Shown: one piece after another, positions 27,689 to 52,743 of the stretch
Numbering within the stretch: position 1 is the first letter of the stretch
Layout: each line of letters starts with the position of its first letter
Virus genome (UHGV): UHGV-0178594
DNA from: a virus
Strand: one strand, 5' to 3'
DNA: 64,000 nt
Translations under genes and position numbers: made by a program
The notes under the pieces: model-generated
Seen by the model: the letters and a program-made list of their open reading frames with translations, nothing else
Database searches by the model: none
Told to the model about the DNA's origin: nothing

Positions 27689-27720
27689 GTGTTAGAAAAT
27701 AAAACTCAATTATCTAACAC
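27689..27720. promoter_or_regulatory. Operator-like palindrome GTGTTAGAAAAT..TATCTAACAC immediately upstream of rdgC-dmt
   Basis: Member of the recurring motif family; 14 bp from the rdgC start. Confidence 0.45.
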
Positions 27721-37251: not shown

Positions 37252-38178
37252 TTAACTAACAATCCAGTCGGTCGCTGCTACATCTTCTGGCTGTAAATCA
37301 ATCGCACAGATCTTGCCGTCGCGAAAGGTGCGCCAGTTTTTCCGTGAGCCTCTTTCGGGCCATACCCAGACACTTTCAGGCCAGGATGCTCGACGGCATA
37401 CGGTTGCATACCCTGTTTTAATCTTCTCTCTGGCGGTATGCAACGACAGGTTTGCCTTTGGACTTTCAGGCACAGGATGGTGAATGGCCTGAAATAGCCC
37501 CATCCTGGGATGATACCAGCGTTTGTTGCGTGGTTCAGCCTCCGACATAACCTGCTTAAAGGCTTTCCGGAAGGGGGCCAGGGCCACAATGGAGCGTCTC
37601 GCAAGCAAACCATCGGGAGTTAAAAACTCATGCGTATCTGTGGGGATCCGGTAAGCGTTGACCAGGTTGCGGCATTTGGCTTCAGTCAGGCCGCATTTCG
37701 CCGCTAACTGGCGATAGCCAATGTAGCCTTCCGGAATATTGCCTTTCTTTATTTGCTCGACGGTTTCAGCGACTTTGGTCACTTGTGCCGATACTTCGGC
37801 TACCTGGGCATTAACGGCGTTGATCCGGCGTTCATGCTCAAGATGCATTTGCGCCATTTCGGCCAGAATTTCGGCTTTTGATTTTAACGGTCCTCTGGCA
37901 TTCTCCAGTTCGCGCCAGCGGTCCACCAGCCGGGCGGTGAATTCGGGAGAGAGCTGCGCGACGACGATAATGCTATCGCGCTTGCCTTGTTCGCCTTCGA
38001 AGACGTAATAGCTCGCCGGGCGGCCTGCAGTGGGCTTTTCCTCAATTTGAGGAAAAGTTATTACGCCCCGTTCCGCCAGGTGTTCAATGGTGCGTTTAAC
38101 GTTGTCAGGACGCTTACCCACCAGCTCCGCGATCTCAATACTGGTCATTGTCGCTTTTTGAGAGATGGACAGATTCAT
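37252..38178 (-). CDS. Rha-family regulatory protein / antirepressor candidate
   Basis: N-terminal ..MTSIEIAELVGKRPDNVKRTIEHL.. resembles the Rha/antirepressor N-terminal domain; coiled-coil middle. Confidence 0.5.
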   Translation of the reverse strand: MNLSISQKATMTSIEIAELVGKRPDNVKRTIEHLAERGVITFPQIEEKPTAGRPASYYVFEGEQGKRDSIIVVAQLSPEFTARLVDRWRELENARGPLKSKAEILAEMAQMHLEHERRINAVNAQVAEVSAQVTKVAETVEQIKKGNIPEGYIGYRQLAAKCGLTEAKCRNLVNAYRIPTDTHEFLTPDGLLARRSIVALAPFRKAFKQVMSEAEPRNKRWYHPRMGLFQAIHHPVPESPKANLSLHTAREKIKTGYATVCRRASWPESVWVWPERGSRKNWRTFRDGKICAIDLQPEDVAATDWIVS

Positions 38179-38393
38179 CAGTGCACCTCCACGCAGTTCA
38201 TTGGCAGATTCCAGTAATTGAGGATCTCCATCGCATCAAGAGTGAAGCGAGCAGCAAAAATGCAGGGTTCTTCGGGAAGGTATGAGCGCGCTTCTGCTTC
38301 GGTTGCAGCCATGACGCAGATATACAGGTGTTTTTGGCAGGAATAGAAACGCCAGATAAATTCAGAATGAGTTGGGGTAGGGATAGTAGCCAT
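38178..38393 (-). CDS. Small protein upstream of and overlapping the antirepressor gene (icd-like position)
   Basis: 71-aa ORF with strong RBS AAGGAGG; 1-bp overlap with the antirepressor start. Confidence 0.3.
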   Translation of the reverse strand: MATIPTPTHSEFIWRFYSCQKHLYICVMAATEAEARSYLPEEPCIFAARFTLDAMEILNYWNLPMNCVEVH

Positions 38394-38399
38394 ATTGGC

Positions 38400-38640
38400 A
38401 GCCTCCTTTGACTAAGTTAAGGAGCTACCGCGTGAGGTTCCAATCTCAATGGCGGTAGCACTGACTGGGTTGGAACTACCGGCGTCAAAGGGAACCGGCC
38501 TGCCTTTCGGCAGCCCAGCCAGCACTACCATTGATCTCTGAGCTAAACGCTAAGTATGGCTGTGCGATGGCATGACACAAAAAAAGACGCGTTCGGCGTC
38601 TGTGTCGCCTTTGACATTATCCGGGGTTCCAATCCCGGCA
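38400..38640 (-). ncRNA. Structured leader / candidate c4-like antisense regulatory RNA region
   Basis: Hairpins GCTACCGC..GCGGTAGC and CTGCCtttcGGCAG; GGTTCCAATC occurs twice (38427, 38619) with its complement TTGGAAC at 38466. Confidence 0.25.
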
Positions 38641-38706
38641 CCCGTTTTTCTAAGGTGCCGTAGAAATATACCCCACGATAATGCCAGGGCGCAACTGTGT
38701 GTTTTC

Positions 38707-38874
38707 TTATGCTTTTCTTTTCTTCTTTTGGGCTTGCTTGCAGGCGTAGGCCATTGCTTTAGCTTTCACTTCATCCAGCTTTCCGGTGATCACTTCTTTT
38801 CCGAGAGTGACAAACCAGTCATAGCAACCGCCAGTGATGTTCTGGATTTGAAAGTTGAGGTAGCGAACGGTCAT
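38707..38874 (-). CDS. Small basic protein (55 aa) MTVRYLNFQIQNITGGCYDWFVTLGKEVITGKLDEVKAKAMAYACKQAQKKKRKA
   Basis: Hand-translated; below the ORF-track cutoff. Confidence 0.25.
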   Translation of the reverse strand: MTVRYLNFQIQNITGGCYDWFVTLGKEVITGKLDEVKAKAMAYACKQAQKKKRKA

Positions 38875-39195
38875 TTTGACACCCCCAGCGCGAGTAAAGA
38901 ATGCAGATTATCGCGTGAGTGGCGGACAACGAGTGATGGGAAAAGACAGTAGCTGTTCATAGTGTAGTGACTCCTTGCTTTCGGAGCCGCCATCGACTGT
39001 TCCACGGTCTGGTGGCGGCGCAATAAAGGTTGGAACACCGTGAGTCAACGGGGGCTTTTCAGCCACCTATATTGCACCGCCATTGGTATGGCGGCGGCAA
39101 TCATACGAAAAACCAAACGGTTTGTCTCAAAAAGTTGACCGGTGTACCAATCGGTTGTGAATGTACAACGGCGAATCTCACAATTCAACTTAAAA

Positions 39196-39218
39196 TGTTA
39201 GAAAATTAATTTATCAAT
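39196..39218. promoter_or_regulatory. Operator-like element TGTTAGAAAATTAATTTATCAAT overlapping the ref stop codon
   Basis: Nearly identical to the element overlapping the dre stop codon at 58095. Confidence 0.4.
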
Positions 39219-39823
39219 TCAGTCACCATCTGATACAACGTCATTTCATCAGCATTGTGCCGCCTGAAATCTGCTTTGCCGCCTATTTTTCCATCAGCAT
39301 GAACAGGAACCAACCAGGGGTATTGCTCGCGGATCTCTGCTGGCGCTGCGTGTTGATGGTGCCATTTACACAAAGGGAGGACGTATTTATGCGCGTTCTC
39401 TGCTGTTCTCCCGAAGATGTGGTGCAGGGATACCACAGGGCTATGCTGTCCGTGCATATGGCAGGCAATGCAGGGGAGAGCACCGATGGCAGTTTGTATC
39501 CGGCGCTCATCTGCTGTGAGTGTTCTGCCTTTCAGGCCGCGTGACGCGCGAGTTTTTTTGACAGGAGCAGAAGCGGCCTTCTCTTTTCTTCGCTGTTCAT
39601 ATTGCTTCGCTTTTTCAATTTTCTTTTGCCGATATTCAGGCGATGCGGCTTTTTCTCGCGCACGCTGCTGCTGGCGTTGAGCTTGCTGAAGACGCTTTGC
39701 CCTTTGTTCCTCCCGCCATTTCGGATCAGCCAGTTTTTGCAGGGCTTTTTGTGTCTGTTTCTCCCAATAGCTTTGCTTCATAGAAATACCCGGTTTGTCT
39801 ACATCGCCGCTATGGTTGATCAA
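39206..39823 (-). CDS. ref: Ref-like HNH endonuclease (recombination enhancement function)
   Basis: K/R/Q-rich disordered N-terminal ~80 aa followed by HNH-type core ..CIACHMHG..HHIFGR..CKWHH..; matches the described architecture of P1 Ref. Confidence 0.6.
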   Translation of the reverse strand: MINHSGDVDKPGISMKQSYWEKQTQKALQKLADPKWREEQRAKRLQQAQRQQQRAREKAASPEYRQKKIEKAKQYEQRRKEKAASAPVKKTRASRGLKGRTLTADERRIQTAIGALPCIACHMHGQHSPVVSLHHIFGRTAENAHKYVLPLCKWHHQHAAPAEIREQYPWLVPVHADGKIGGKADFRRHNADEMTLYQMVTELIN

Positions 39824-39825
39824 AT

Positions 39826-39857
39826 GTGTTAGAAAATCAAAATTGATTTTCTAACAC
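39826..39857. promoter_or_regulatory. Near-perfect 32-bp palindrome GTGTTAGAAAATCAAAATTGATTTTCTAACAC directly upstream of ref
   Basis: 15-bp arms are exact reverse complements; 3 bp from the ref start. Confidence 0.55.
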
Positions 39858-39898
39858 AAAATGAAGATACTTTTTTTCAGACGCTATATCAGGAGGTC

Positions 39899-40054
39899 AT
39901 GATGCTTGTCGCAATAAGTGCAATCCACCAGCAATCCGGTACAGAAATTGGGTTGCTATATGCCCTGTTTTTCACTGTCCTGGCGTTGTTTGAGCTGGGC
40001 ATTGAACTCTTTGCTCTCATCAACTTTTGCGTAACGTTCCTGGGGAAACTTTGA
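39899..40054 (+). CDS. Small hydrophobic peptide (51 aa), translationally coupled to the next gene
   Basis: AGGAGG RBS at 39891, ATGATG start, TGATG stop/start overlap at 40052-40056; hand-translated MMLVAISAIHQQSGTEIGLLYALFFTVLALFELGIELFALINFCVTFLGKL. Confidence 0.3.
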   Translation: MMLVAISAIHQQSGTEIGLLYALFFTVLALFELGIELFALINFCVTFLGKL

Positions 40055-40665
40055 TGTCAAAACGCATTATGAAAATTTACATCGCGGGTCCGATGACTGG
40101 TTATCCCGACTACAACCGCACAGCGTTTTTTTCGAAAGCAAAAGAGCTGATGGAGGTAGGGCATATTGTTCTGAATCCGGCGCTGTTACCTGCTGGCCTC
40201 TGCGAGAGCGAATACATGGATATTTGCCTTGCAATGGTGCGTTCGGCTAATGCGGTCTATTTGCTCAAGGGGTGGGAGGAATCAGTTGGCGCTCGTGCAG
40301 AGCACGAGCTGGCTCAAAAGCTGGGGCTGAATGTAATTTATGAGTCACCAACCAACATTGAATGCCAGGTTGCTCCGCATATTTACCGGGAACTGGTCAA
40401 TGCACTGCGTGATATCGCTGCTGTATATCACGGCACAGAACAGCTTCGTGAGCGTTTAGCCCATACCATTTCCTATTACCTGTCTGCATCTCATGAGCAC
40501 AAGCTCCGTCAGAAGGTAATGATCAAATTTATCATGAGGTTATCGAAATCCCTGGCAAACGCCGATCCAAAGAATCCATTACCGAAAGTGGCAATGAATT
40601 ACCTGAAGTCCTGCAACATTGTTTCTGAAGATGGCGTTCTTTTGGTTAGAAGGAGTTCTGCGTGA
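40054..40665 (+). CDS. DUF4406-like (nucleoside 2-deoxyribosyltransferase-like fold) protein
   Basis: N-terminal ..KIYIAGPMTGYPDYNRTAFF..GHIVLNPA.. motif; C-terminal half unassigned. Confidence 0.45.
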   Translation: MSKRIMKIYIAGPMTGYPDYNRTAFFSKAKELMEVGHIVLNPALLPAGLCESEYMDICLAMVRSANAVYLLKGWEESVGARAEHELAQKLGLNVIYESPTNIECQVAPHIYRELVNALRDIAAVYHGTEQLRERLAHTISYYLSASHEHKLRQKVMIKFIMRLSKSLANADPKNPLPKVAMNYLKSCNIVSEDGVLLVRRSSA

Positions 40666-41012
40666 GCTGGCGGGGATGGGGAAGGGCAGAAATCATGATA
40701 CTCCGCCAGTGCGCCGGGACTATGACAGTCGAGGGTATTGGGAGACTGATCGGGCGTACCGGTGGTGCTGTCAGGACTAAAGCGCGGCAATTGCGGATCA
40801 GCATGATTCTGAAAGGTGACTTTCACCAGTCAGCCAAATACCGGCAGAGCGATATAGAGCTGGCGCGGCAGCTTCATCAGTGTGGCGTTCCCCGCCGTGA
40901 GATCGCAGAAAAACTCGAAATGCCCCTGGGCATGATTAATCAGTACGTTTATTTCGAAAGGAGAGTGCATGAAGTCAGAAGGTTTAACGCCCGCACAACT
41001 GGCAGAGCGTAA
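40662..41012 (+). CDS. Hypothetical protein with HTH-like segments
   Basis: 116-aa ORF. Confidence 0.3.
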   Translation: MSWRGWGRAEIMILRQCAGTMTVEGIGRLIGRTGGAVRTKARQLRISMILKGDFHQSAKYRQSDIELARQLHQCGVPRREIAEKLEMPLGMINQYVYFERRVHEVRRFNARTTGRA

Positions 41013-41478
41013 CGCTGAGTATGTAACGGAAATTTCCCGACTTGAGAAAGAGCGCGCGGCGCTGGCGGCAGAGAATGCGACACTGAAGGCGATATGTGAG
41101 GACCGCCGCACGTTCATCATGAATGGCGTGCTGCTTGGTTTTATCCAGATGCCAACAGCGGAAATAGATCCAGCTCTTGAAACAATTCGTGTCGCCCTAT
41201 CACCACAAAATCCTACCCCTGCGACCGACGCTTTCTTGGATGAAATGAAGACTGAAGCACGCAAGGAAGGGGCTTACTTTGTGGCGAACAGAATGTTGGC
41301 TGCCTGGAAAGCTGGTTTTATTGATGATACTGCGAAGAACGCCGCGGATATTGCCCGGATGATTCTTACCTCTACTGATTTTATGGCTAATGCGCCGGAA
41401 GGAGATTTTGACCGCTCATTCTCTGATGGCGTTCTCGAAGATATCGCTGAACAGCTTCGTAAAGGAGTCATCCAGTGA
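40969..41478 (+). CDS. Modular coiled-coil protein, family member 1 (Ea22-like?)
   Basis: Coiled coil ..LEKERAALAAENATLKA..; C-terminus ..[10 protein letters not shown] shared with paralogs. Confidence 0.4.
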   Translation: MKSEGLTPAQLAERNAEYVTEISRLEKERAALAAENATLKAICEDRRTFIMNGVLLGFIQMPTAEIDPALETIRVALSPQNPTPATDAFLDEMKTEARKEGAYFVANRMLAAWKAGFIDDTAKNAADIARMILTSTDFMANAPEGDFDRSFSDGVLEDIAEQLRKGVIQ

Positions 41479-42197
41479 GCGAAATTAATTACCAGGCACT
41501 GCGTGAGGCGGCGGAACGTGCAATTCCAGCAATGGAACGCCTGTTAATGTTGCCAGCTGATGATGATTTGTTAAGTGAACAGGAACTTAAAGATTACGGT
41601 GTGGATATTGATGCGCTCAACGCCTTCAAATTTCTGGCCGGACCAGAAACCGTGCTGGCACTACTGGATGAACGGGAAAGAAACCAGCAATACATCAAAT
41701 CTCGCGACCAGGAGAACGAGGATATTGCGCTAACGGTAGGGAAGCTGTTAATCGAAAACGGTCAGCTTGTTGCCGATACGCTACGCCACTTAGCTGATAA
41801 CGAAATCGACTCTGATTATTTTGCTATCACCTCAACTAATGAGAACGGTACTGAAATTGATCATGAGATGTCTATTACCGATTACGCACTGCAAGCTGCC
41901 GGAACTGTAGACGAATTGGTTGCGGCGCTGGAAGCCGCAAAATCAAAACTCAACGAGCAGCGTGAATATTACGAGGGAGTAATCGCGGATGGAAGTAAGC
42001 GCATAGCAGAGTTAGAAAGTGGTTCTCAGGCACAAAAGTTAGTTGAAGCAATCATTGTTGCGATAGAAAACGAACAGGAACGTCTTTTTGATGAAGATTA
42101 CCTAATGGATTCGAAAGAATGCATTGACGTAATTCGTGAAGAAGTAAAGCGATGGAATGATTCCCGCGCCGCTGGCATTCGCATCAAAGGAGAGTGA
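41475..42197 (+). CDS. Modular coiled-coil protein, family member 2
   Basis: GTG start inside the GTGA junction; N-terminus [13 protein letters not shown] shared with 47610. Confidence 0.4.
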
Positions 42198-42198
42198 G

Positions 42199-42522
42199 AT
42201 GACCACATCGCATTCTGCAATCACCCAGGAAAAAGTATTTCGCTTGCTCGAACGTCTGGAGGCGCTCGCCACGGAGGAGGATATATCCCCGGAGATGCTG
42301 GTCGAGTGCAGCCGTGTGATATTGCGTCGCAAGAACGACATCGCGCGGCTGACATCTGGCGCACAATCCGTATCAGCCAGTCCAACGCTTTATTGCAGCT
42401 TCTGCAACAAATCCCAGCACACCGTTAAAAAGTTAATTGCCGGGGACAACGTTTTCATCTGCAACGAGTGCGTGAAAGATTGCAACAACATTATCCAGGA
42501 AGAGCAAAGGGAATCAGCATGA
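42199..42522 (+). CDS. Small protein with C-terminal ClpX-type C4 zinc-binding domain
   Basis: ..[39 protein letters not shown].. closely matches the remembered N-terminal zinc-binding domain of E. coli ClpX; no AAA+ module follows. Confidence 0.55.
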
Positions 42523-43229
42523 AATTTTCCAAATTCTCGGAGTTGGTGAATCGTATTTTGTCCAACAACCACAGCCATCGTCGCGATATGGATGTAACGA
42601 TCGTTGTTCATTCGCCTGGTCGCATCGGTTCAACACCATCAGTTGAGGTTCAGTCAATTCAGGTGGGTTTTGATTGGGATGCCGGGAAAGTGCTGATTTT
42701 CCCAGCACAGCCACTGACCACGCTAACACCAGAACAGATTACTGATATTACGGATAGTGTGCGCAAAGGTCAGTCTTGGCACGCATATCAGGAATACAAG
42801 AAGCATAAAGAGCAGTTGGAAAAATTGTCGATTGAACTGGATGCTGCAAGACGGCGCATTACAGAACTGGAGAGCGAACGCGCGGTGCTGGCGGCGGAGA
42901 ATGCGGAGCTGAAGTCTGTGCACCCTCAACCATTCGGAGCTGAGATGATGAAGGCTCTTGATGCGTATGAGAAGCATCAGGATGAAGTGCCAGAGACTGG
43001 AATGCTCAATGCATTTTTCATCTTGCGCGACAGTATCCGTGTTGACACCCCAGCCACCGATGCTTTCCTGGCTGAAGTACGTGCGCAGGGCGTGGATATG
43101 GCTCGTAACGCGATGATTGATTTTGTCGATGGTGAAGTTGGGCCAAACAAGAACGTTCCGGGGCTGATTAGAGGCGCAGAGATATGCGTAAGTATTGCTG
43201 AACAGCTTCGCAAAGGAGGCAGCCAGTGA
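42519..43229 (+). CDS. Modular coiled-coil protein, family member 3
   Basis: ..[18 protein letters not shown]..; C-terminus ..[10 protein letters not shown]; ATGA overlap with the previous gene. Confidence 0.4.
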
Positions 43230-43501
43230 ATATCGACACGACAATAACGATCGATACGCTCCTAAATACCGGTCTGGCACTTCTCGGTTGGCTTTACATC
43301 ATGTCCCGTACATGGCGATGGCTGGGTTCCATTTTCCTAAAACAGTGGAAAAAACGGCGCAAACAGGAACTACGTCAGAAGGCATTAGAAGCGTTCTATG
43401 ACGCATTTGAGCTTAGCCGCATTGAACCAGGTACAACAGCCAGGATAGCGACAAAAGGCGACCTGATGATAGTGATGTTCAGACAGGAGAAAACAAAATG
43501 A
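43226..43501 (+). CDS. Small membrane protein
   Basis: 91 aa with one TM segment (LALLGWLYIM); GTGA junction start. Confidence 0.3.
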   Translation: MNIDTTITIDTLLNTGLALLGWLYIMSRTWRWLGSIFLKQWKKRRKQELRQKALEAFYDAFELSRIEPGTTARIATKGDLMIVMFRQEKTK

Positions 43502-43722
43502 CAGAACAGACGATGACAAATCGCGAACTTGTTGATGCCGCGATTGAACTTGCTGGCGATTTTTATTCCATGTTGGGTTACGAGCATCGACCTGGTTTTA
43601 AGTATTGGGAGTCACCGCATCCGCAAGAACAACAGGTGTTTGAAATGGCCTGCCGTGCTTTTGAGGTTATTCGCGGTTCTGATGTGATGGAGGCCGTTGC
43701 CGACTTGGAGGATGAAGAGTGA
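43498..43722 (+). CDS. Hypothetical protein
   Basis: 74-aa ORF, 4-bp overlaps on both sides. Confidence 0.3.
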   Translation: MTEQTMTNRELVDAAIELAGDFYSMLGYEHRPGFKYWESPHPQEQQVFEMACRAFEVIRGSDVMEAVADLEDEE

Positions 43723-44030
43723 GCATCATTAAAGAAATGCCGGTAGAACGTGATGAATATGGCTGCTGGACACATCCGGAGTATGAAAAGTTTTGCGCAG
43801 GTCGTGAATATATATCCACTGAGGAATTTGACGCCTGGATGAAGGAAAATAATCTTCAGTGGACTATTCGCAGTATGGATGAAGATCATTTTAATCTGGA
43901 CGCAGATGGTCCCGATATTGCCGCCTGGGAACCAGAGCGACCAGAGGGCGAAGGATGGTTTGTTGGCTCTATTCATGACACTGAAGATGGCCCGGTTTGT
44001 ATCTGGCTGCGGGAGAAGGTTGCCGCATGA
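43719..44030 (+). CDS. Hypothetical protein
   Basis: 103-aa ORF. Confidence 0.3.
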
Positions 44031-44713
44031 CCCAGGCGCTGCATGAAGTGAATTTATATAGCCGTATTGATGGTTCAGGCTACAGAAACATATGGGTTGT
44101 TGGTGATCTGCATGGTTGCTACACCAGATTGATGTCTGAACTTCATCGTGTGGACTTTGACCCGACACAGGATTTACTGATATCGGTTGGCGACCTTATC
44201 GATCGCGGCACCGAAAATGTTGAATGCCTGGAGCTATTGCAGATGCCCTGGTTTCGGTCGGTTATGGGAAACCACGAGCGATTAATGATCGATGCGTTAA
44301 GCCCCGCAGGCAACGTGAATAACTGGCTAATGAATGGCGGCCAATGGTTCTTCATGCTGGACGCTGATCGGGAAATATTAGCCAGGGCGCTGGTGGAGCT
44401 GGTAAAGCGTCTGCCCTATATCATTGAGTTGAACACCGGGCATGAAACTATCGTTATAGCCCATGCCGACTATCCTGATAACGAATACCAGTTTGGTAAA
44501 CCTGTTAGCGATCTCAATGTTACCTGGCGGCGTGAGCGATTTTATGACGCGGTTGATGGTGTTGGTGGAATGATCACTGGTGCAGATAGCTTTATTTTCG
44601 GGCATACGCCAGTAAACAGCCCGAAATCTTTCTGGAACCAGCACTACATAGACACTGGCGCGGTTTTTTGCGGAAATCTGACGCTAAAGCAGGTGAAGGG
44701 AGGCCAGCCGTAA
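44027..44713 (+). CDS. Ser/Thr protein phosphatase (calcineurin-like metallophosphatase, lambda PPase-like)
   Basis: Motifs ..VVGDLHGC.., ..GDLIDRG.., ..GNHE..; start at ATG 44027 inside the listed 43997 ORF. Confidence 0.75.
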
Positions 44714-44744
44714 TCCTGAACACATCGTTTATGCACTCAAAACC

Positions 44745-44775
44745 GTGTTAGAATATTGATTTTAATTTTCTAACA
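44745..44775. promoter_or_regulatory. Operator-like palindrome GTGTTAGAATATTGATTTTAATTTTCTAACA upstream of the 44818 gene
   Basis: Member of the recurring motif family. Confidence 0.45.
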
Positions 44776-44817
44776 TATTATTTTACCGCTCGGAACAAAA
44801 CAGAGTCGGTATACATT

Positions 44818-45813
44818 ATGAGTGCAATAATCACACCTCATTTCGTAAACGGAGCTGGTGTGGCTGTCTTTCCGGTAGACAAGCCCACCAGCAACTACAT
44901 TGGCGCAGGTCGCCGTTTCATTATCTCTCCACTTCCGCGCGAACAGGCTGAAAACACGCCAGATGGCGTAGTGGATCTGAACTATTCGCTGGTTGCCAAC
45001 CAGTCTCTGAAAGCATTTTTTCAAAGCGAGCGCGTATTTAACGCATTAGGCGGTGAAGATTCGCTTGTTCATTGGGTAAGTTCCAATATCCACGATTGCC
45101 AGGCGCACGATAAGCGCGATTGCAGCCACCAGCTAACCACTCATTTCTATAACGGCTCTGCCGTTCGCCTGTGCTGGAAGCATGATGCGGAATACATGAT
45201 GAAGGGGTACGGCAAGCTGGATGACCAGTTATCCCTAAATCGTGCCAACTGGGTTATGAACTGGGCTGCGAGCGAGTTAAAACTACCGCCAGAACGCGAT
45301 CTGAGCATGGTTGAACTCACTTTTTGGGCCATTCGCCGGAATCTGAAAGACGAGCTGCCAGATGAAGCCGGTCGCATTGCATTTTGTCAGCCAAAACAGG
45401 AAATCCCTACCGGCACACTGAAAGAATCGGATATCACCTGGGAGCACAGCACCCGTGAGCTGGTGGACATAACCGCAGAGCAGATCGTCAACCTGTCTGT
45501 AGATGAGGATTCCGGCCTGCTGTATATGCGCCGACCAAAAGCGGTTCTCGGTAAAAGCCCGGCTTATCTCCGGTTTGTGATTTCTCGTCCGTGCATCGGA
45601 TGCGGAGGCAAAGTTAATCACCCGTTCATGTACCGCGCCCGCTCGTTAAACGAACACGATCGCTGGGCCGTTCCTCTTTGCGATGAATGCGCCAGAAGCG
45701 CAGAAAACGATGTCCGGGCATGGGAAAAAGCACATGGCATACGCCTTTACGTAGCCGCCAACCAGCTTTTCGACTTCGCCATCGAGCGCGGAGTGATCAC
45801 GTTCAATAACTGA
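44818..45813 (+). CDS. Hypothetical protein with C-terminal Cys cluster
   Basis: 331 aa; ..RPCIGCGGKVNH..VPLCDEC.. Confidence 0.35.
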   Translation: MSAIITPHFVNGAGVAVFPVDKPTSNYIGAGRRFIISPLPREQAENTPDGVVDLNYSLVANQSLKAFFQSERVFNALGGEDSLVHWVSSNIHDCQAHDKRDCSHQLTTHFYNGSAVRLCWKHDAEYMMKGYGKLDDQLSLNRANWVMNWAASELKLPPERDLSMVELTFWAIRRNLKDELPDEAGRIAFCQPKQEIPTGTLKESDITWEHSTRELVDITAEQIVNLSVDEDSGLLYMRRPKAVLGKSPAYLRFVISRPCIGCGGKVNHPFMYRARSLNEHDRWAVPLCDECARSAENDVRAWEKAHGIRLYVAANQLFDFAIERGVITFNN

Positions 45814-45817
45814 TGGA

Positions 45818-46396
45818 GTGGATCAAAAAATGAAAGAACGCGGGATGATTTTTAACGATGAGATGGTCCGGGCAATTCTTGGCGGGAATAAAACACAGAC
45901 TCGCAGGATTGTTGAAGAAAAATTCTATGGACGAGCAGTTGCCGCAGAGTTGCTTGCCAAGCATTGTCCATATGGTCAACCGGGCGATCGTATTTGGGTT
46001 CGCGAAACCTACCGGGTACATGGCAAAGCGACGGACGTCGCAACGCTGGTTTATCGCGCAAGCGTGCGTAACTCCTGGACAGAACAAACGCACCGGGTTC
46101 CGGTCGATGTTTGTAATAAACCAGTATCAGAAAAGTGGACGCCATCAATTCACATGCCGCGCTGGGCATCGCGCATTCTTCTGGAAATTACCGACGTGCG
46201 TGTGGAACGGCTGCATGACATGAGCGAGGCAGATGCTAAAGCAGAAGGCGCAACTCCGGCGACGTACAAGATTACGCCACCTGAAGCTGTTTATCGCGTT
46301 GGTTTTGGTGATATCTGGCGCAGTATTTACGGGCAGGATAACTGGCTATCTAACCCGTGGGTATGGGTAATCGAGTTTAAGCGCATTCAGGAATAA
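45818..46396 (+). CDS. ASCH-like prophage protein
   Basis: N-terminal ..MIFNDEMVRAILGGNKTQTRR.. signature common in enterobacterial prophage proteins. Confidence 0.4.
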   Translation: MDQKMKERGMIFNDEMVRAILGGNKTQTRRIVEEKFYGRAVAAELLAKHCPYGQPGDRIWVRETYRVHGKATDVATLVYRASVRNSWTEQTHRVPVDVCNKPVSEKWTPSIHMPRWASRILLEITDVRVERLHDMSEADAKAEGATPATYKITPPEAVYRVGFGDIWRSIYGQDNWLSNPWVWVIEFKRIQE

Positions 46397-46479
46397 ACCG
46401 TGAGTATGCATCAAATCGTCAGTTTTTCAGGTGGACGAGCATCGGCCTGTCTCGTTCATCTGTTCGAAGAGGTAGTGGA

Positions 46480-46683
46480 ATGACAATCGTAAAAACCCAT
46501 ACCGGTACCGTGATCACCAAAGATGGCCCGCAGGTAAAAAAACTGCACCAAACAGAGCGGATGTGGGTCGTTGGCAAAAACGAGTTTTACCACAAAGAAA
46601 CTGGACGCCGCCATTTTGCAGAAAATACGCGCCGCCGACTGCTGTTAGACACCATCAAGCCTATCGAGGTGAAGCATGTTTAA
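46480..46683 (+). CDS. Hypothetical small protein
   Basis: 67-aa ORF. Confidence 0.3.
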   Translation: MTIVKTHTGTVITKDGPQVKKLHQTERMWVVGKNEFYHKETGRRHFAENTRRRLLLDTIKPIEVKHV

Positions 46684-46915
46684 ACAGAACGAAAAAGCTA
46701 TCGCTCAAATTGCTGATTATATCCCGCGTGCGTGCCGAGGTATGCAGTTGCAGGAAGCCAAAGCGCGCCTGGAGAAAAAAATTGCGCTCTATATTGATGA
46801 CGGCTGTGATGCCGCCGTTCTTAACGCGGCGTTCGCACCAGCTCTTAACCGTCATACTCGGGAGTCTTTTTTTTCGTGCATCGCAGCGCAACTCCGCAAA
46901 GGAGGCAACCAGTGA
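46676..46915 (+). CDS. Small protein sharing the family C-terminus ..AAQLRKGGNQ
   Basis: 79 aa; ends in the GTGA junction. Confidence 0.35.
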   Translation: MFKQNEKAIAQIADYIPRACRGMQLQEAKARLEKKIALYIDDGCDAAVLNAAFAPALNRHTRESFFSCIAAQLRKGGNQ

Positions 46916-47178
46916 GTGAGTCAAAATGCCAAATTAATGGCAACAAGATAGAACCGTGCGCGGCGTTGACGCAATCCCTGGAACATGACGCTGAATACAC
47001 GACGCGAAAAGGTCTGCTGAAATACAAAATCTATAACCATGCATTAATTCATTCACAAGACCTGATCATGCTGCGGTCAGGCGAGTTTTCTAAATCGCCG
47101 ATTCGAATTTCATTTTGCCCGTTCTGTGGTGAAAGTCTGAAAACGTGGGAAGCGGAGGCAACCAGTGATCAAAATTAA
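46912..47178 (+). CDS. Small protein with CPFCG zinc-ribbon-like motif
   Basis: GTG start in the GTGA junction. Confidence 0.3.
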   Translation: MSESKCQINGNKIEPCAALTQSLEHDAEYTTRKGLLKYKIYNHALIHSQDLIMLRSGEFSKSPIRISFCPFCGESLKTWEAEATSDQN

Positions 47179-47623
47179 CTATCAAGAACTGCGCGAGGCG
47201 GCGGAACAGGCAACGCAAGATGAATGGGTAGCATATATTTTGCCGGGTCATAACGGCATTTATCCTGCGCGCACGTCTGAGGGTAGGCATTGCGGATACT
47301 TTATTGACTGGCCTGGTATTGATGGGCTGAGAAACGCTGGTGCCAATGCCCGTTATATCGCGGCTATCCCACCAAAAGTTGCTCTGGCGCTACTGGGCGA
47401 AATTAAGCGCCTGGAAGACGCAAATATTGATGCCATGTGCCGAATTGCAGAACTGGAGAGCAATCGCGCGACGCTGGCGGCGGAGCAGCGTATTCAGATT
47501 GCAATAAATGAACTGGTTGCTCTGGCCCCGCGCCTGGATAAACGAGCGATGGATGCACTCTCTGTGACTGTGGTGCACCTGTATAAACTGATTAATAAGG
47601 AGGCAACCAGTGAGCGAAATTAA
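47165..47623 (+). CDS. Modular coiled-coil protein, family member 4
   Basis: N-terminus IKINYQELREAAEQ; ..ELESNRATLAAEQ.. Confidence 0.4.
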   Translation: MIKINYQELREAAEQATQDEWVAYILPGHNGIYPARTSEGRHCGYFIDWPGIDGLRNAGANARYIAAIPPKVALALLGEIKRLEDANIDAMCRIAELESNRATLAAEQRIQIAINELVALAPRLDKRAMDALSVTVVHLYKLINKEATSERN

Positions 47624-48308
47624 TTACCAGGCACTGCGTGAGGCGGCAGTGAAAGCAACGTGGGGAGACTGGGACTCATATAAACCACACCGTGGCGCAC
47701 GTGGTTATGAGGTCCGACTAAGTAGTCAGGCCATTGCGCAACACGTTCTGAAAAACAACGCTGAATTTATTGCTGCCTTTAATCCCAAGGTTGCTTTGGC
47801 ACTACTGGATGAGATCAACGCATTAGAGGAAACGCGTATCAACGATGTTTGCCGTATTGTGGAACTAACAAAACAACTGGAGTCGGCAAAATCAAAACTC
47901 AACGAGCAGCGCGAGCATTACGAGGGAGTAATCGCGGATGGAGGTAAGCGCATAGCAGAACTGGAAAAACAATGCGCTGAATCGGAGCGAAAAGCATTAA
48001 GCAACTTTGAAGAGTGTGCTGCGATGGCTGAACGTATCGAAGAGTTGGAGCAGGCCAACACAAGACAGGACGCCAATATAAACCACCAGCAGGAGGGCGT
48101 GACTCAATCAGTCACCCGATACATATATCACTACAACGCAGTGAATGGTTCTGACTCTATGTCTGGAATTGCGCGGTTAACTTTCATGATCAAATCACAA
48201 TCTGACCTTGACGCACTTAAAAGCGCACTTAGCAAGGTTGGTGGTTTCCGTGCAAAAGCAATTACATCTCTTTCATATCTTGGGTGTGAGGAAGATAGCA
48301 AACGATGA
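47610..48308 (+). CDS. Modular coiled-coil protein, family member 5
   Basis: N-terminus [12 protein letters not shown]; ..[27 protein letters not shown].. nearly identical to a segment in 41475-42197. Confidence 0.4.
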   Translation: MSEINYQALREAAVKATWGDWDSYKPHRGARGYEVRLSSQAIAQHVLKNNAEFIAAFNPKVALALLDEINALEETRINDVCRIVELTKQLESAKSKLNEQREHYEGVIADGGKRIAELEKQCAESERKALSNFEECAAMAERIEELEQANTRQDANINHQQEGVTQSVTRYIYHYNAVNGSDSMSGIARLTFMIKSQSDLDALKSALSKVGGFRAKAITSLSYLGCEEDSKR

Positions 48309-48838
48309 AAGAAGGATTTAAAGATAATTCAGGTGCAGCGCAAAACACTGGAGAAATCATTGAGGCATTTAATGGGGAGGAAATGCCCACTTTATTCAGA
48401 AAAGAATATCCGCGAAAGAGTAGAGCACTAGAATTGCTGTTTATCATTCTGTTTTTCGTGTTGCTGATACCAATAGCCTCAATATTAGTGACTGTTCTAA
48501 TGGGGAAAGTATTTGAACCGTTAGTTGAACTGTATATCGATATAGTGTGGACCCCATTCAGGAAGCTACACAATAAAATTAACCCACATAAGGAAACAGA
48601 TATGGCAACTTTGAAAAAAGAAGATCGTTTTACCAAAAAACAAATCGCCGAGGCAAAAATCCTCGATAACAACGGAACCTACTTCATCAACGGTTCCATT
48701 CTTCCTGTTTATATCAATGAAGATGGAGACACTTACCTTATTGAAGAGTACGAAAAAGGCGAGCCGAGCGAACACCTCATTAAAGATTTGTTCGCGGATG
48801 GCGTTATTGTTGCTGTTAATCCGATTGGCTACAACTAA
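48305..48838 (+). CDS. AT-rich membrane protein
   Basis: 177 aa; TM stretch ALELLFIILFFVLLIPIASILVTVLMG. Confidence 0.3.
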   Translation: MKEGFKDNSGAAQNTGEIIEAFNGEEMPTLFRKEYPRKSRALELLFIILFFVLLIPIASILVTVLMGKVFEPLVELYIDIVWTPFRKLHNKINPHKETDMATLKKEDRFTKKQIAEAKILDNNGTYFINGSILPVYINEDGDTYLIEEYEKGEPSEHLIKDLFADGVIVAVNPIGYN

Positions 48839-48848
48839 AGCATAAATT

Positions 48849-49361
48849 ATGACCAGTATTACCAGAGAACAGGCCAAGAAAATTATTGAAGCTGCCGATG
48901 AGGTTATTAGTGCGCTTGCCGGAACTAACGAGGATGTTCACCCTGGTAGCGATAACATGCTACGTCTGTGGGATGACCTGAATGACCGTTACGCGCCGCC
49001 GGAAGTTGTGCGTGAGCTGGCGCGTATCGTGCTGGCATCGCTGGAAGCGGAGCCTGTAGCGTGGCGATATCGCTACGTGAAAAAAGGCGTTACGGACTCT
49101 CAGGGGGAGCCGTGGGTTGGTGACTGGAAATATGTACCGACAAAAGAGGATTGCAACGACAGGCCGAGCTATGAGATTCAGGCCTTATTCACTGCCCCGC
49201 CAGTCCCGGTGACATCAGAAGGACTGGTTAAAGCCGTGCGTTTCTATGAACAAGTTAAGCGTGAAAATCCGCCAGTCGAAACCGGAGCATGGAAAGACGC
49301 GATTGACTGGGTGCTCAAAGAGGCCTGCCAGGTTGTAAACACTGGCATCAAAGGAGACTGA
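48849..49361 (+). CDS. Hypothetical protein (shares ASLEAEPVA / APPVPVT segments with 49569)
   Basis: 170-aa ORF. Confidence 0.35.
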   Translation: MTSITREQAKKIIEAADEVISALAGTNEDVHPGSDNMLRLWDDLNDRYAPPEVVRELARIVLASLEAEPVAWRYRYVKKGVTDSQGEPWVGDWKYVPTKEDCNDRPSYEIQALFTAPPVPVTSEGLVKAVRFYEQVKRENPPVETGAWKDAIDWVLKEACQVVNTGIKGD

Positions 49362-49362
49362 T

Positions 49363-49572
49363 ATGGCTATTGCCGCAAGTTACACCATGCATCTCTATTG
49401 TGATTGCCTCCAGTGTACAGATGGCAAATATAAGTCGCCAGACTTCGGTGAGTATATCGGTACGTCATGGGCTGGCTGTGCAAAAGAGGCGCGCAAAGAT
49501 GGCTGGCGAATAAGCAAAGACAAAACGCGTGCTTTTGCGCCCGGGCATAAAGTTTTGAGGATTAACAAATGA
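49363..49572 (+). CDS. Small Cys-rich protein
   Basis: 69 aa; ..YCDCLQCTDGKYKSPDFG.. Confidence 0.3.
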   Translation: MAIAASYTMHLYCDCLQCTDGKYKSPDFGEYIGTSWAGCAKEARKDGWRISKDKTRAFAPGHKVLRINK

Positions 49573-50633
49573 CCACTTTAACCGACAAAGAACTGATTAA
49601 AGAAATCAAAGAGCGAATCGGCAGCCTGGACGTGCGAGACAATATTGAGCGCCGTGCTTATGAAATTGCTCTGGCATCGCTGGAGGCAGAGCCAGTGGCA
49701 AAAATTATAGCTCACTACCCATTAGGAATTGACGTAGGCAAACAAAAGTTCGTACAGGCCATTGGAGAGCTTCCTGACTTTGGAGGATATCTATTCGCCG
49801 CTCCACCTGTGCCGGTAACACAGGCTAATGTCGCGCAAGCAATTGAAAATCTTAAGCAGAAGTTAGTGGAATGCAATCGCTATAACTACTGCGCAGATGC
49901 AGTTAAAGATGTTGAGGATGCCAGCCGCGTCTTGGCACTCCAAAATCAAAATATGTCAGCACCGATAACGCAGGAGGCCATTGAAAACGCAATTGAATAT
50001 ATCCGCAGTATTGCTTTTCACATCGATGAAGACGATTACCACGGCAAGCATATTGCGTATTTCATGCGACAAGCACTGGTCTGGCTGGAAGGGCATTCAT
50101 GCAGCGACGACAGACAGGATAAAGCCGAGAATCAACCAGTACGCGGTAACCAGGCTGCCGAATCCAATCGCGGTAATGAGTGGACCGGCAATCCTGATAT
50201 TGATAACGCCATCATCATGCTTGACCGCATAGATACGGCGGAAAGTTACGATGATGACCGTATTGAGGCTGTTAAGGCTGTTTTGCGTAGACTGGCAGGC
50301 AACTCTCCGGTAATTCCGGATGGTTTATCCACGGTATGCGCTGAGGCTTATCAGGTTGTAGGAGTTATGGCAGATGCGCTTGGTGTATTCGGTGATGCAG
50401 CAGTACAGAAAGTTCTGGATAACCTGTCACAGCAAAAACTTGTTCACAGAGATGTGCTGCCGTTCTCGCTTCCGGTAACTCCGGATGGTTGGGTTATGGT
50501 TCCTAAACAGGTAACGCCGGAAATCAGCAACGCGATAAACGTTGTGGGTCAACGCTGTACATGCGGAAATTGCTCTCAGCGGTTGTGGGATTTATTACTC
50601 GACGCCACACAGCAAGGAGTTAACCGTGGCTAA
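49569..50633 (+). CDS. Hypothetical protein
   Basis: 354-aa ORF. Confidence 0.35.
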   Translation: MTTLTDKELIKEIKERIGSLDVRDNIERRAYEIALASLEAEPVAKIIAHYPLGIDVGKQKFVQAIGELPDFGGYLFAAPPVPVTQANVAQAIENLKQKLVECNRYNYCADAVKDVEDASRVLALQNQNMSAPITQEAIENAIEYIRSIAFHIDEDDYHGKHIAYFMRQALVWLEGHSCSDDRQDKAENQPVRGNQAAESNRGNEWTGNPDIDNAIIMLDRIDTAESYDDDRIEAVKAVLRRLAGNSPVIPDGLSTVCAEAYQVVGVMADALGVFGDAAVQKVLDNLSQQKLVHRDVLPFSLPVTPDGWVMVPKQVTPEISNAINVVGQRCTCGNCSQRLWDLLLDATQQGVNRG

Positions 50634-50809
50634 CCTGCAACTTATCCTCAAAGGTGAAAAGATTTGAGGATTCGCATCATTAATAACACCGACAAGCATC
50701 CGGATGATTATTTGGATTGCTCGTTAGCAGAGCGCGTGGAATTGATATAAGAGAATCTCCGCGCATCGGCAACACACAGCTAAATATGTTCGCAATAAAG
50801 GGTAAATCA

Positions 50810-51211
50810 ATGGCTAAATTTCGGAGAACTATTATTTTTCTGGCAATGTTATCTGCCTGCCATTTATCACATGCATCGGTTATTGTTGCAACCGCCGCAA
50901 CAACGGCAGCAATTAGCGCCTCAGCCGCAAGCGAGCAGGAGCAACGCACTGCAATCAATGCATCCGCAAATACTACCACTGTAGCAGTCACGCAAGATAA
51001 GCCAAATATAGGCTTTGTTACTTGCGGAAAACGGTATGGAGAGACGGTCGGTTCTCTTGGTTGCGCAGTGTGGCATGACGAACGAGCAGAAATTCCGTGG
51101 AAATCATGGCCTGGTTACATTCTTGGCGAAAAGATACCCACCAGCTATGAAGTAAATGCTATTTCGTTCGACCAATATAACAGAGTCGCAACGGTCTACT
51201 TTTCTTATTAA
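50810..51211 (+). CDS. Lipoprotein candidate
   Basis: From ATG 50810: MAKFRRTIIFLAMLSAC.. (lipobox-like LSAC). Confidence 0.35.
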   Translation: MAKFRRTIIFLAMLSACHLSHASVIVATAATTAAISASAASEQEQRTAINASANTTTVAVTQDKPNIGFVTCGKRYGETVGSLGCAVWHDERAEIPWKSWPGYILGEKIPTSYEVNAISFDQYNRVATVYFSY

Positions 51212-51217
51212 CACGGA

Positions 51218-51517
51218 GTGATTATGTGGCGCGGTAATAATCATGGCAGAAGCCATATGATACTTACCGAATATAAGCTAGACCACAAAACCAATAAATC
51301 ACGCTCAGTATATTTGCTCCGGCACAATAGCCGCGTAAGGAATACCGTGCTGGAGCAATATCTGACCGTTGAAATGGATAATTTCGGGAATTTCAAGCCA
51401 ACAATATCGCTTGATGATTTCCCTCGTGGTTTAAGCGAAAGAGAAGCAATGCTGAAATTAGCAGAATGGCTACAAAGATTGAGCATTGTTATTGAAGATA
51501 ACTGGAGTCAACCATAA
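51218..51517 (+). CDS. Hypothetical protein
   Basis: 99-aa ORF. Confidence 0.3.
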   Translation: MIMWRGNNHGRSHMILTEYKLDHKTNKSRSVYLLRHNSRVRNTVLEQYLTVEMDNFGNFKPTISLDDFPRGLSEREAMLKLAEWLQRLSIVIEDNWSQP

Positions 51518-51693
51518 TGAAAAACAGAAAGAAATTTTGGATTACTTTTTTGTTTGTATGCCTTTGCGGTTCATTTGTTTTGTTGGCTGGTGGTGTTGAA
51601 TGGGGAACGATGGGATGTGGAGTTGGGAGTGGCTTTACGCTTCTTGCAGCCTGGGTTATCGCTGGCGTTCAGTCTGGAGGAGGGTATTACTAA
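51517..51693 (+). CDS. Small membrane protein (58 aa)
   Basis: TAATG overlap with the previous gene; MKNRKKFWITFLFVCLCGSFVLLAGG.. hand-translated. Confidence 0.25.
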   Translation: MKNRKKFWITFLFVCLCGSFVLLAGGVEWGTMGCGVGSGFTLLAAWVIAGVQSGGGYY

Positions 51694-51713
51694 GTAATTT
51701 TATTACCCCCTTC

Positions 51714-51765
51714 ATAACGGATATCACTCTCGTGATAACGGATATTCCAATTTTGATAACGGATA
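51714..51765. promoter_or_regulatory. Three direct repeats ATAACGGATA spaced 21 bp upstream of the 51773 gene
   Basis: Copies at 51714, 51735, 51756. Confidence 0.45.
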
Positions 51766-51772
51766 AAGCCAA

Positions 51773-51982
51773 ATGAGGCATTTTTTAAGGCTGGCATTTG
51801 TTCTGGCGCTATTTGCTCCTCCGGCTGCGATGGCTGGAGAACAGCAGCACTGTGTAACTGAATCAGAGAATCTTGTAATAGTCACTCAATGCGATGACGG
51901 AACGGTGACCGTGGTTAATGTACGAGATAACCGTGTAGCCGTGTGTCGTAAAGGCGAATCATGCAAGGAGATAAAGCTATGA
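51773..51982 (+). CDS. Small secreted Cys-containing protein
   Basis: Signal-peptide-like MRHFLRLAFVLALFAPPAAMA. Confidence 0.3.
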   Translation: MRHFLRLAFVLALFAPPAAMAGEQQHCVTESENLVIVTQCDDGTVTVVNVRDNRVAVCRKGESCKEIKL

Positions 51983-52743
51983 CCAAAATCACTAAAGAGC
52001 GTATATCAGAGATTATTTCCCGTATCGAAATGTATGGTCACGGTGCTGGATATACGGCAGATGAAGTATTGGCGCTTGCCAAAATAGCGTTAGCGCCTTG
52101 CAAGGATGGTAACGGAATGACACTGATTGACTTTTTAGTGAAGGAATTATCTAAGGGAGCTGGATGGCCTGATGGAAAAGATTTTTGCTATCTACCCATT
52201 CCGCTGGCAGGTTGTAGTTGGGCTACGGTTCGTTTTGATACGCGCCATAAAAATTACCAATCATCAAAGAATTATTCCTTTGATGGCATTATTTGCGATA
52301 TCAGTGACCTTGATCGCAGTGCGTTTACATCGGTTGTCACTCGTGAACAATATGAAGCAGCTCGCATAGCGTCTCAGAAAGTCGAGTTCAATGGTGATGA
52401 ACTTGAAAGTAAGGCTTACAAGTTAGATTTTGAGCAATGGCTGGAACAGCAACGCGGGAAAATCGATGTGGACTGCGGTTGTGTGTCTGCGGAAACATTC
52501 ATGCACTGGTTGCGGGTAGCTTATGAGGCTGGCAACCATCCGGATTTTCCGGATAGTTCCCAACAATCGCCCAAGAAAAGCGTAAAAACCTCTCTGGAAA
52601 GAGGCTATCTTGAGGCCGCATTAAAGATTAAGCCGGGCCATACGCTAGGCGTCATTGATGCCATGTTGGTTCATGAAATGGCTAAGGCTTTATTGCCACT
52701 GGTAGCAGATCAACATGAGGCGAGTCATGCCAACGAAAGCTGA
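51961..52743 (+). CDS. Hypothetical protein
   Basis: 260-aa ORF. Confidence 0.3.
   Translation: MQGDKAMTKITKERISEIISRIEMYGHGAGYTADEVLALAKIALAPCKDGNGMTLIDFLVKELSKGAGWPDGKDFCYLPIPLAGCSWATVRFDTRHKNYQSSKNYSFDGIICDISDLDRSAFTSVVTREQYEAARIASQKVEFNGDELESKAYKLDFEQWLEQQRGKIDVDCGCVSAETFMHWLRVAYEAGNHPDFPDSSQQSPKKSVKTSLERGYLEAALKIKPGHTLGVIDAMLVHEMAKALLPLVADQHEASHANES

Follow-up and report, generated by a model that had tools for sequence, protein, structure and literature searches.

In phage P1, C4 RNAs act in trans, and the operators of the C1 master repressor show a dispersed pattern. The immI locus of P1, c4-icd-ant (RF01695), combines a structured C4-type antisense RNA with a short open reading frame (ORF), icd, that has a strong Shine-Dalgarno (SD) sequence and is coupled to a downstream effector. 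The orf45-anrP pair of Gifsy-1, which has been tested, is joined by an AUGA overlap; there the leader is conserved in its nucleotides but not in its amino acids, and the effector depends on translation of the leader (PMC4825925). Here we compare these systems with a locus in a 64,000-nucleotide (nt) stretch of virus genome UHGV-0178594 (the whole stretch is referred to as the window), in which three short frames, here ORF1, ORF2 and ORF3, had been proposed as genes from the letters alone (the original prediction). All three are almost certainly genes, and ORF1 appears to be the cargo of a second C4-type module.

The part of the window from 38000 to 52500 is about 99% identical to E. coli plasmids of about 90 kb, and Escherichia phage D6, a P1-like plasmid prophage (MF356679), is 89% identical to the same part. 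By sequence comparison, the window belongs to a D6-like, P1-family phage-plasmid; neighbouring genes for a Ref nuclease, an Icd-like protein, a Rha-family antirepressor, Phd and DNA polymerase III theta fit this identity. Related loci were drawn from IMG/VR, metagenomes, PLSDB and phage records, and their variation was analysed at the codon level. Some are cited below by number: L055 is Enterobacter p60214CZ_1, L078 a metagenome contig and L082 a distant contig. In PLSDB, ORF1 was found in 120 plasmids, ORF2 in 111 and ORF3 in 43. The three ORFs are as follows.

38707..38874, minus strand: ORF1, a 55-amino-acid (aa) soluble basic protein (PHROG 7786; D6 orf85; WP_021551801.1).
39902..40054, plus strand: ORF2, a hydrophobic peptide of 50 aa, or of 51 aa with a start at 39899 (PHROG 8890; D6 orf88; WP_157209371.1).
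51517..51693, plus strand: ORF3, a 58-aa membrane peptide (WP_157913813.1).

For each ORF we compared distinct alleles, counting variable sites at codon positions 1/2/3 and calculating the ratio of nonsynonymous to synonymous polymorphism (pN/pS) in all six frames for ORF1 and ORF3, and in the three same-strand frames for ORF2.

ORF1: 22 distinct alleles, 19 intact; variable sites 12/7/30; pN/pS 0.20; other same-strand frames 1.5-1.7.
ORF2: 15 distinct alleles, 15 intact; variable sites 22/15/36; pN/pS 0.24; other same-strand frames 0.63 and 2.35.
ORF3: 10 distinct alleles, 8 intact; variable sites 12/5/19; pN/pS 0.31; other same-strand frames 0.65 and 0.98.

For each ORF, its own frame alone combines openness across alleles with purifying selection; one further frame of low ratio in ORF1, and one in ORF3, is broken by stop codons. 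On the basis of frames that stay open and purifying selection confined to them, we conclude with near certainty that all three are genuine genes. The original prediction had placed them exactly (38707-38874, minus, 55 aa; 39899-40054, plus, 51 aa; 51517-51693, plus, 58 aa) and had held that at least the latter two were real, naming conservation of the frames in related elements beforehand as the check that might refute it. That check was favourable for all three, and the judgement extends to ORF1: doubted at the outset, ORF1 is in fact the best supported (pN/pS 0.20, a family reaching into other genera, and an AlphaFold predicted local distance difference test score, pLDDT, of 85.6).

The description of these ORFs as unannotated holds for the 60-aa track on which the original prediction was based, but not beyond it. 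PGAP calls all three as hypothetical proteins, under the accessions given above, on NZ_CP173593.1, a plasmid of 99% identity; the GenBank record of D6 contains orf85 (ORF1), orf88 (ORF2, 153 nt) and orf86, which overlaps the start of orf85, each as a "hypothetical protein"; and the re-annotation of the D6-like pYU39_89 includes homologs of ORF1 and ORF2 (PMC6799933, S1 table). PHROG matches are full-length, both for ORF1 (7786; E 9e-42, positions 1-55 of 55) and for ORF2 (8890; E 7e-31, residues 2-51 on positions 1-50 of 50). None of the three peptides acquired a functional name from scans of Pfam, NCBIfam and PHROG, and they fit no Pfam or NCBIfam model. As catalogued hypothetical proteins the ORFs themselves have little novelty; what is modestly new is the second C4-type RNA and the icd-remnant leader that carry ORF1 as cargo.

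The start codon of ORF1 is preceded, 5 nt upstream, by GGGGGTG, and the protein is predicted to fold into four beta strands and a C-terminal helix. A deep HMMER search defines a family of 48-58 aa with the core motif NxTGG[CH]Y[DE]W; the search with the ORF1 profile recovered just 13 proteins, none carrying a name. Homologs in Enterobacter and in a soil metagenome are 62-64% identical, and D6 orf85 is identical over the 47 aa compared; a profile search of genome contigs returned no match. At curated cut-offs ORF1 has no match in Pfam or NCBIfam (best Pfam E 0.007), leaving only PHROG 7786, a family of unknown function, and in scans of Pfam, NCBIfam and PHROG it resembles none of the antirepressor families Ant, KilA and Rha.

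An Rfam scan of the minus strand returned four elements around ORF1 (C4#1, isrK/a1b1, C4#2 and a weak c4-a1b1 match). In the order in which they would be transcribed, the features of this region, ORF1 itself aside, are these.

39008..39087, minus strand: C4#2, a C4-type antisense-RNA-like element, unannotated in the records examined.
38871..38960, minus strand: ORF0, a leader ORF of 29 codons (SD AAGGAG, 38976-38971) whose stop codon, TGA, overlaps the ORF1 ATG (ATGA).
38671-38618, minus strand: a weak c4-a1b1 match (22.4 bits), overlapping the isrK element.
38580..38658, minus strand: an isrK / a1b1-type element (61 bits), between ORF1 and C4#1.
38448..38535, minus strand: C4#1, a canonical C4 antisense RNA (77.1 bits).
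37252..38393, minus strand: an icd-like gene (38393-38178) and a Rha-family antirepressor gene (38178-37252), joined by ATGA coupling; the cargo of module 1.

C4#2, the ORF0 leader and ORF1 thus stand, in that order, just upstream of isrK-C4#1-icd-ant. The structure of C4#2 consists of a long outer stem around two hairpins, with an unpaired GUUCCA that is invariant across the alignment. Compensatory double changes were seen at 8 of 25 pairs at first, and then at 16 of 25 in a four-lineage alignment that includes the canonical C4#1; C4#2 is a real structured RNA. The element was found in all related loci, with scores of 38-40 bits against RF01695 in relatives, and its positional homolog in L082 scores 48.1 bits, over the cut-off. 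The leader that follows it contains UGGAACA (39004-38998) and GAGUCA at the SD, as candidate sites of pairing with C4#2; it is the sole place in the window where UGGAAC and GAGUCA occur as a correctly ordered pair. Among cross-comparisons the cognate loop-leader duplex is the best. Folding of full-length RNA duplexes between C4 elements and leaders was uninformative, because it melts the stems of the C4 itself.

The leader shows the opposite pattern of constraint to the three genes. The peptide of ORF0 has a pN/pS of 1.4, and its amino-acid sequence is unconstrained; every E. coli-type allele retains the ATGA overlap onto ORF1, even a variant of 31 codons in which indels of -3 and +9 nt preserve the frame. 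At the same position, and in the same start context, L008, L055 and L078 carry an intact Icd-like ORF of 61 aa (NF033153, 47 bits, cut-off 25). In the E. coli-type alleles the 3' part of ORF0 lies in a different frame from the ancestral icd; ORF0 does not match NF033153 (it was scanned as a 40-aa form that contains the 29-aa one), no icd-family ORF lies between C4#2 and ORF1 in the window, and the resemblance of ORF0 to icd is one of position and 5' sequence only. We take ORF0 to be the probable remnant of a decayed icd-like gene. In D6 the same genes occupy the same positions, with orf86 in the ORF0 frame extended at its 5' end to an upstream ATG (38993). The C4-like element upstream of orf86 is unmarked, and orf86 is not read as an icd remnant, in the records of D6 and in the matching PGAP records examined.

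The unit also occurs by itself. A C4-like element, an icd or leader, and ORF1 are found without the downstream isrK-C4#1-icd-ant in L008, L011, L030, L055 and L078; in L055 the unit is closed by a strong terminator. Similarity to the window breaks at the ORF1 stop in L008, L030 and L031, the last of which has neither isrK nor a second C4. In L082 the order is ref, an a1b1-like element, a C4 (48.1 bits), the ORF1 homolog, isrK, a C4 (79.5 bits) and RepL. Its order, and its standing alone in relatives, suggest that the unit is a self-contained module in which ORF1 takes the position held by ant in c4-icd-ant of P1. We regard this architecture as probable.

Measured against immI, module 1 of the window (C4#1-icd-Rha/ant) is a full match in which the loop-target pairs covary. 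Module 2 (C4#2-ORF0-ORF1) shares the RNA architecture, and its counterparts in relatives contain an Icd-like ORF; like immI it joins a structured C4-type RNA to a short ORF whose SD is strong and which is translationally coupled to a downstream gene. It differs in that its icd has decayed to 29 codons that lie partly in another frame, in that C4#2 scores below threshold and its pairing with the ribosome-binding site is a candidate, and in that its 55-aa cargo has no similarity to Ant, KilA or Rha. With isrK-orf45-anrP of Gifsy-1, the stop/start overlap of ORF0 and ORF1 and the unconserved amino acids of the leader are shared, and an isrK-family element is present, here directly 3' of ORF1. In Gifsy-1 the RNA activates translation, and the effector is an antirepressor of about 200 aa; the RNA upstream of ORF1 is instead C4-like, and the putative effector is a protein of 55 aa.

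By analogy with both systems, ribosomes translating the ORF0 leader would deliver initiation at ORF1 through the ATGA overlap, and a C4-type RNA would keep ORF1 off in the lysogen; ORF1 could then act as an early or anti-immunity effector. C4-mediated control of ORF1 is a tentative proposal, to which we give slightly less than even weight.

Several observations weigh against it. C4#2 scores 42.3 bits against RF01695, under the gathering score of 45 bits, and the Enterobacter copy (L055) is not detected by that model. Loop and leader could pair over a short length only, namely 6 nt at the SD or, around the upstream ATG, a 9-bp duplex in which two pairs are G-U, and the margin of the cognate duplex over shuffles is modest; in L082 the first C4 has no complementarity to the SD of the ORF1 homolog. 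A remote relative of ORF1, P0035, occurs in phage early regions without any C4, and fold searches with ORF1 yield non-specific matches and no function. The weak complementarity, its absence in L082 and the P0035 relatives lend some weight to an alternative in which C4#2 does not regulate ORF1: ORF1 would be a passenger in the long leader of the immunity operon, and C4#2 a decaying duplicate or an RNA whose target lies elsewhere, as the trans action established for P1 C4 RNAs would allow. A candidate target is c4-icd_2-kilA of pYU39_89, since D6-like plasmids carry this further c4-icd-kilA module about 50 kb away (PMC6799933). Against the alternative, the order of C4-like element, icd or leader, and ORF1 is kept across three diverged lineages; the unit persists where the downstream module is absent, with similarity breaking right at the ORF1 stop; the single correctly ordered UGGAAC...GAGUCA pair in the window lies in the ORF0 leader; and the compensatory changes that uphold the structure of C4#2 speak against decay. 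We judge this alternative somewhat unlikely. A bolder form of the proposed control, in which a C4-type RNA of its own gates ORF1 as a new minimal immunity-switch effector of 55 aa (an anti-immunity protein, say, or a small antirepressor), is in our view unlikely to be correct.

Other start regions were considered as targets of C4#2. Loop complements of 8-9 nt occur at 46398, at 46916 and at the SD of ORF3 (51505), and are likely due to chance: about 14 8-mers are expected and 6 were seen. The perfect complement GUGAGUCAA at 46916-46924 (plus strand) covers codons 2-4 of a gene that starts with GTG and has AGGAGG at 46900-05; GAGUCAAC at 51505-51512 (plus strand), also perfect, covers the SD of ORF3. 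The latter lies within conserved codons of the gene preceding ORF3, whose DNA similarity to RCS47 and SJ46, both of which lack ORF3, extends to the end of the gene. Both complements are probably coincidental.

ORF2 and ORF3 lie on the plus strand and differ from ORF1 in character. The features that bear on ORF2 are an operator and a coupled gene.

39826..39857, between ref (minus strand) and ORF2 (plus strand): the palindromic operator GTGTTAGAAAATCAAAATTGATTTTCTAACAC (32 bp).
40054..40665, plus strand: a DUF4406 gene, nucleoside 2-deoxyribosyltransferase-like (PF14359, E 3.9e-35), coupled to ORF2.

Rightward of the palindrome the first cistron is ORF2, whose stop overlaps the ATG of the DUF4406 gene (40054) as TGATG; its place in the operon and its coupling are read directly from these features. 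The AGGAGG (39891-39896) and the TGATG overlap described in the original prediction are both present, and its frame stands; its start at 39899 does not fare as well. The spacing from AGGAGG is 2 nt for the first ATG and 5 nt for the second, the first is missing from the most diverged allele, and D6, pYU39_89 and PHROG 8890 all use the 50-aa form, so that 39902 is probably the start. Coupling through TAATG had likewise been proposed for ORF3 and is borne out (see below). The coupled set was right as far as it went, but incomplete: ORF1 is coupled too, through the ATGA of ORF0, and C4#2 and the leader had been missed.

Alleles of ORF2 down to 61-72% nucleotide identity contain no indels and conserve the SD and TGATG; D6 orf88 is 71% identical. 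The peptide has a grand average of hydropathy (GRAVY) of 1.45 and one long hydrophobic span, at about residues 16-47, inside which lies an invariant core, ELGIELFA, whose two glutamates are four residues apart. The constraint on its amino acids argues that ORF2 encodes a functional membrane peptide of 50 aa and is not a mere leader. An apparent relative of 48% identity in pSa1423-160k was discarded as the common allele riddled with homopolymer errors.

Diverged alleles conserve the palindrome GTGTTAGAAAATCAAAATTGATTTTCTAACAC, which in L008 has changed symmetrically. Other copies lie at 27691 and at 44747, and half-sites at 18930, 39197, 58096 and about 63935. The dispersed motif GTGTTAGAAAAT...ATTTTCTAACAC, with palindromes at 27691, 39828 and 44747, is scattered like the C1 operators of P1 and by this analogy is likely to be the binding site of the master repressor of the element. 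Inspection by eye picks out a weak promoter, TTGATT and GATACT spaced by 17 nt (39843-39871), that overlaps the right arm of the palindrome. The operon led by ORF2 would accordingly come under the control of a C1-type repressor at a dispersed operator.

ORF3 is flanked by two features of note.

51224..51517, plus strand: a 97-aa gene (PHROG 1258) whose TAA overlaps the ORF3 ATG.
51701..51765, plus strand: three 21-bp-phased direct repeats, each with ATAACGGATA, in the gap that separates ORF3 from the next gene (ATG 51773).

The SD of ORF3 is GGAG (51504-51507), 9 nt before the ATG, and the junction with the 97-aa gene is TAATG. The peptide has a KNRKK N-terminus, a first hydrophobic helix, a conserved turn, GGV(E/K)WGT..CG, and a glycine-rich second helix (GRAVY 0.83). 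AlphaFold returns a helical hairpin at low confidence (pLDDT 62.6), and a helical-hairpin peptide of the inner membrane is what this model would predict. ORF3 matches neither the lipobox [LVI][ASTVI][GAS]C, which LFVC and VCLC do not fit, nor a signal-peptidase I site, and has a second hydrophobic helix instead. Genes like ORF3, of 52-54 aa and about 60% identity, occur in Shigella and on IncFIB plasmids, where they again overlap the stop of the 97-aa gene. A more distant homolog is gp66 of the virulent Salmonella phage VSiP (hhalign probability 97.5%), which shares the core F.....AGGV.WGT.GCG and the two-helix layout but belongs to a virulent siphovirus and lacks the 97-aa partner gene. Variants from Shigella and E. 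coli weakly match PHROG 22580, a family of small phage membrane proteins (E about 6e-4 to 9e-4), whereas ORF3 of the window itself matches no PHROG family.

The 97-aa gene is common to RCS47, SJ46, phiKO2 and Mulock. DNA similarity in RCS47 and SJ46 ends at the ORF3 ATG, and in RCS47, phiKO2 and Mulock, whose annotation was examined, larger genes directly follow the 97-aa homolog. ORF3 is an accessory, lineage-restricted gene: since it is absent from D6 and most relatives, it is dispensable. Among its other neighbours are a gene of 134 aa (50807-51211, plus strand; PHROG 8805) with the lipobox LSAC, probably a lipoprotein, and one of 69 aa (51773-51982, plus strand; PHROG 20764) with a signal peptide ending AMA|G. 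The lipobox and signal peptide of these neighbours suggest a cluster of envelope-directed accessory genes, and at a guess ORF3 might act at the cell envelope, for instance in exclusion or in the modulation of a membrane protein. Exact copies of ATAACGGATA at 51714, 51735 and 51756 are the only three in the window, against 0.12 expected; the repeats are conserved in relatives and deleted in L051, and their arrangement points to what is probably an array of protein-binding sites.

Two further alternatives concern what these two peptides do. Each of the two ORFs overlaps a neighbour by 1 nt, and the same element offers a precedent for a sequence-indifferent leader in ORF0, so ORF2 and ORF3 could be mere translational relay cistrons, with peptides as functionless as that of ORF0 appears to be. 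Their pN/pS (0.24 and 0.31, against 1.4 for ORF0) and the invariant ELGIELFA and GV.WGT..CG are at odds with this; moreover ORF3 follows its partner instead of preceding it, and the ORF3 motif is found again in a virulent phage that is unrelated. Alternatively, since both peptides are small and strongly hydrophobic, and in VSiP a lysin gene precedes the ORF3 homolog by a few genes, either or both might damage membranes in the manner of a type I toxin or of a holin or antiholin. The characters expected of such proteins were absent: no endolysin, spanin or other lysis gene adjoins either ORF, the neighbours being the DUF4406 and PHROG 1258 genes; an Rfam scan found no antisense small RNA over either; and the C-termini, GKL in ORF2 and GGGYY in ORF3, include no charged tail of the kind typical of holins. 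Both ORFs lie inside long operons of early or accessory genes, coupled to non-lysis genes, and PADLOC, Pfam and NCBIfam gave no toxin match. We consider each of these alternatives improbable.

The weakest alternative is that at least one of the three frames encodes no protein. A frame of 126 codons (38572-38952, plus strand) runs opposite ORF1, isrK and C4 and corresponds in part to D6 orf84 (L053 1550-1849); over ORF1 it is open in 19 of 19 alleles, its pN/pS of 1.13 there is neutral, and it is a shadow ORF, not a gene. That a proposed ORF is itself a chance frame, or the shadow of an RNA structure, a regulatory site or an antisense gene, might be argued from the shortness of the frames, from the position of ORF1 between structured RNAs and under this antisense frame, and from the SD of the next gene within the 3' end of ORF2, but is barely credible given that variation biased to third positions and low pN/pS are confined to the proposed frames, that the antisense frame is neutral, and that homologs with conserved motifs occur at 50-64% amino-acid identity in other genera.

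Taken as a whole, the explanation offered here (a D6-like phage-plasmid with three real genes, a module around ORF1, and membrane peptides encoded by ORF2 and ORF3) is one we hold with good confidence. To be set against it are two of the ten ORF3 alleles, which are frameshifted in homopolymer runs; the narrow distribution of ORF3, which D6 lacks and which occurs in 43 plasmids where ORF1 occurs in 120; the promoter ahead of ORF2, which falls under the threshold of the promoter scanner; and a literature search that gave no expression data for the three proteins, none of which is named there by accession. The frameshifts, homologous to window 51528-51552, are in L050 (at about 1523) and L051 (at about 1512), where T6 has become T7 in one case and one base is lost from AAATTTT in the other; they could be sequencing errors, decay or the product of slippage-prone tracts. 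Any specific biochemical role assigned to one of the three proteins would at present be more apt to be wrong than right, and by a wide measure.

The neighbouring module 1 offered observations of its own. The isrK element ends in an intrinsic terminator (38601-38585 and a T run). The loop and bulge of C4#1 covary between alleles with their targets at the icd SD: the loop changes from UUUGAC to UUUUGC as its target changes from GUCAAA to GCAAAA, and the bulge from UUCCAA to UCUCAA with UUGGAA to UUGAGA. At least three allelic specificity types, each with its targets changed to match, were distinguished by comparing window 38400-38540 with L001, L014, L053 and other loci; among D6-like plasmids these types resemble the hetero-immunity of P1 and P7. 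A 39-aa "ash family protein" coding sequence called by PGAP (WP_001396852.1 in L001; window 38412-38531, minus strand) nearly coincides with C4#1, has no NCBIfam match at E<=1 and is probably a spurious protein call. In one relative (L011/L041, about 1740-1750, homologous to window 38625-38445) the stretch from mid-isrK to the end of C4#1 has apparently been lost; the junction lies at repeated GAUUGGAAC b-sites, and unrelated genes follow it. Elsewhere in the window, a PAPS-reductase-family gene of 290 aa that is intact in NZ_CP173593.1 (L001 9587-10459) is reduced by an internal deletion to an in-frame remnant of about 25 codons, MHQIVSFSGGRASACLVHLFEEVVE*, at about 46398-46480 (plus strand).

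None of these findings overturns current understanding. They do show that a cut-off of 60 aa hides real, selected genes in phage-plasmids, and that two coding calls in the region are probably errors: the "ash family protein" over a C4 RNA and D6 orf84, an antisense shadow frame. ORF2 and ORF3 become candidates for early or accessory functions at the envelope. E. coli and Salmonella of clinical and livestock origin commonly carry D6-like phage-plasmids, in which the control of lysis and lysogeny is unlike that of P1. If ORF1 is indeed an effector gated by a C4-type RNA, then these elements would carry two to three hetero-specific C4 switches, two of them in tandem, and ORF1 would replace Ant in those lineages that have only the C4-icd-ORF1 unit at the locus. 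The tandem C4 arrangement with its tiny conserved cargo provides a concrete, testable handle on the lysis-lysogeny control of D6-like phage-plasmids.

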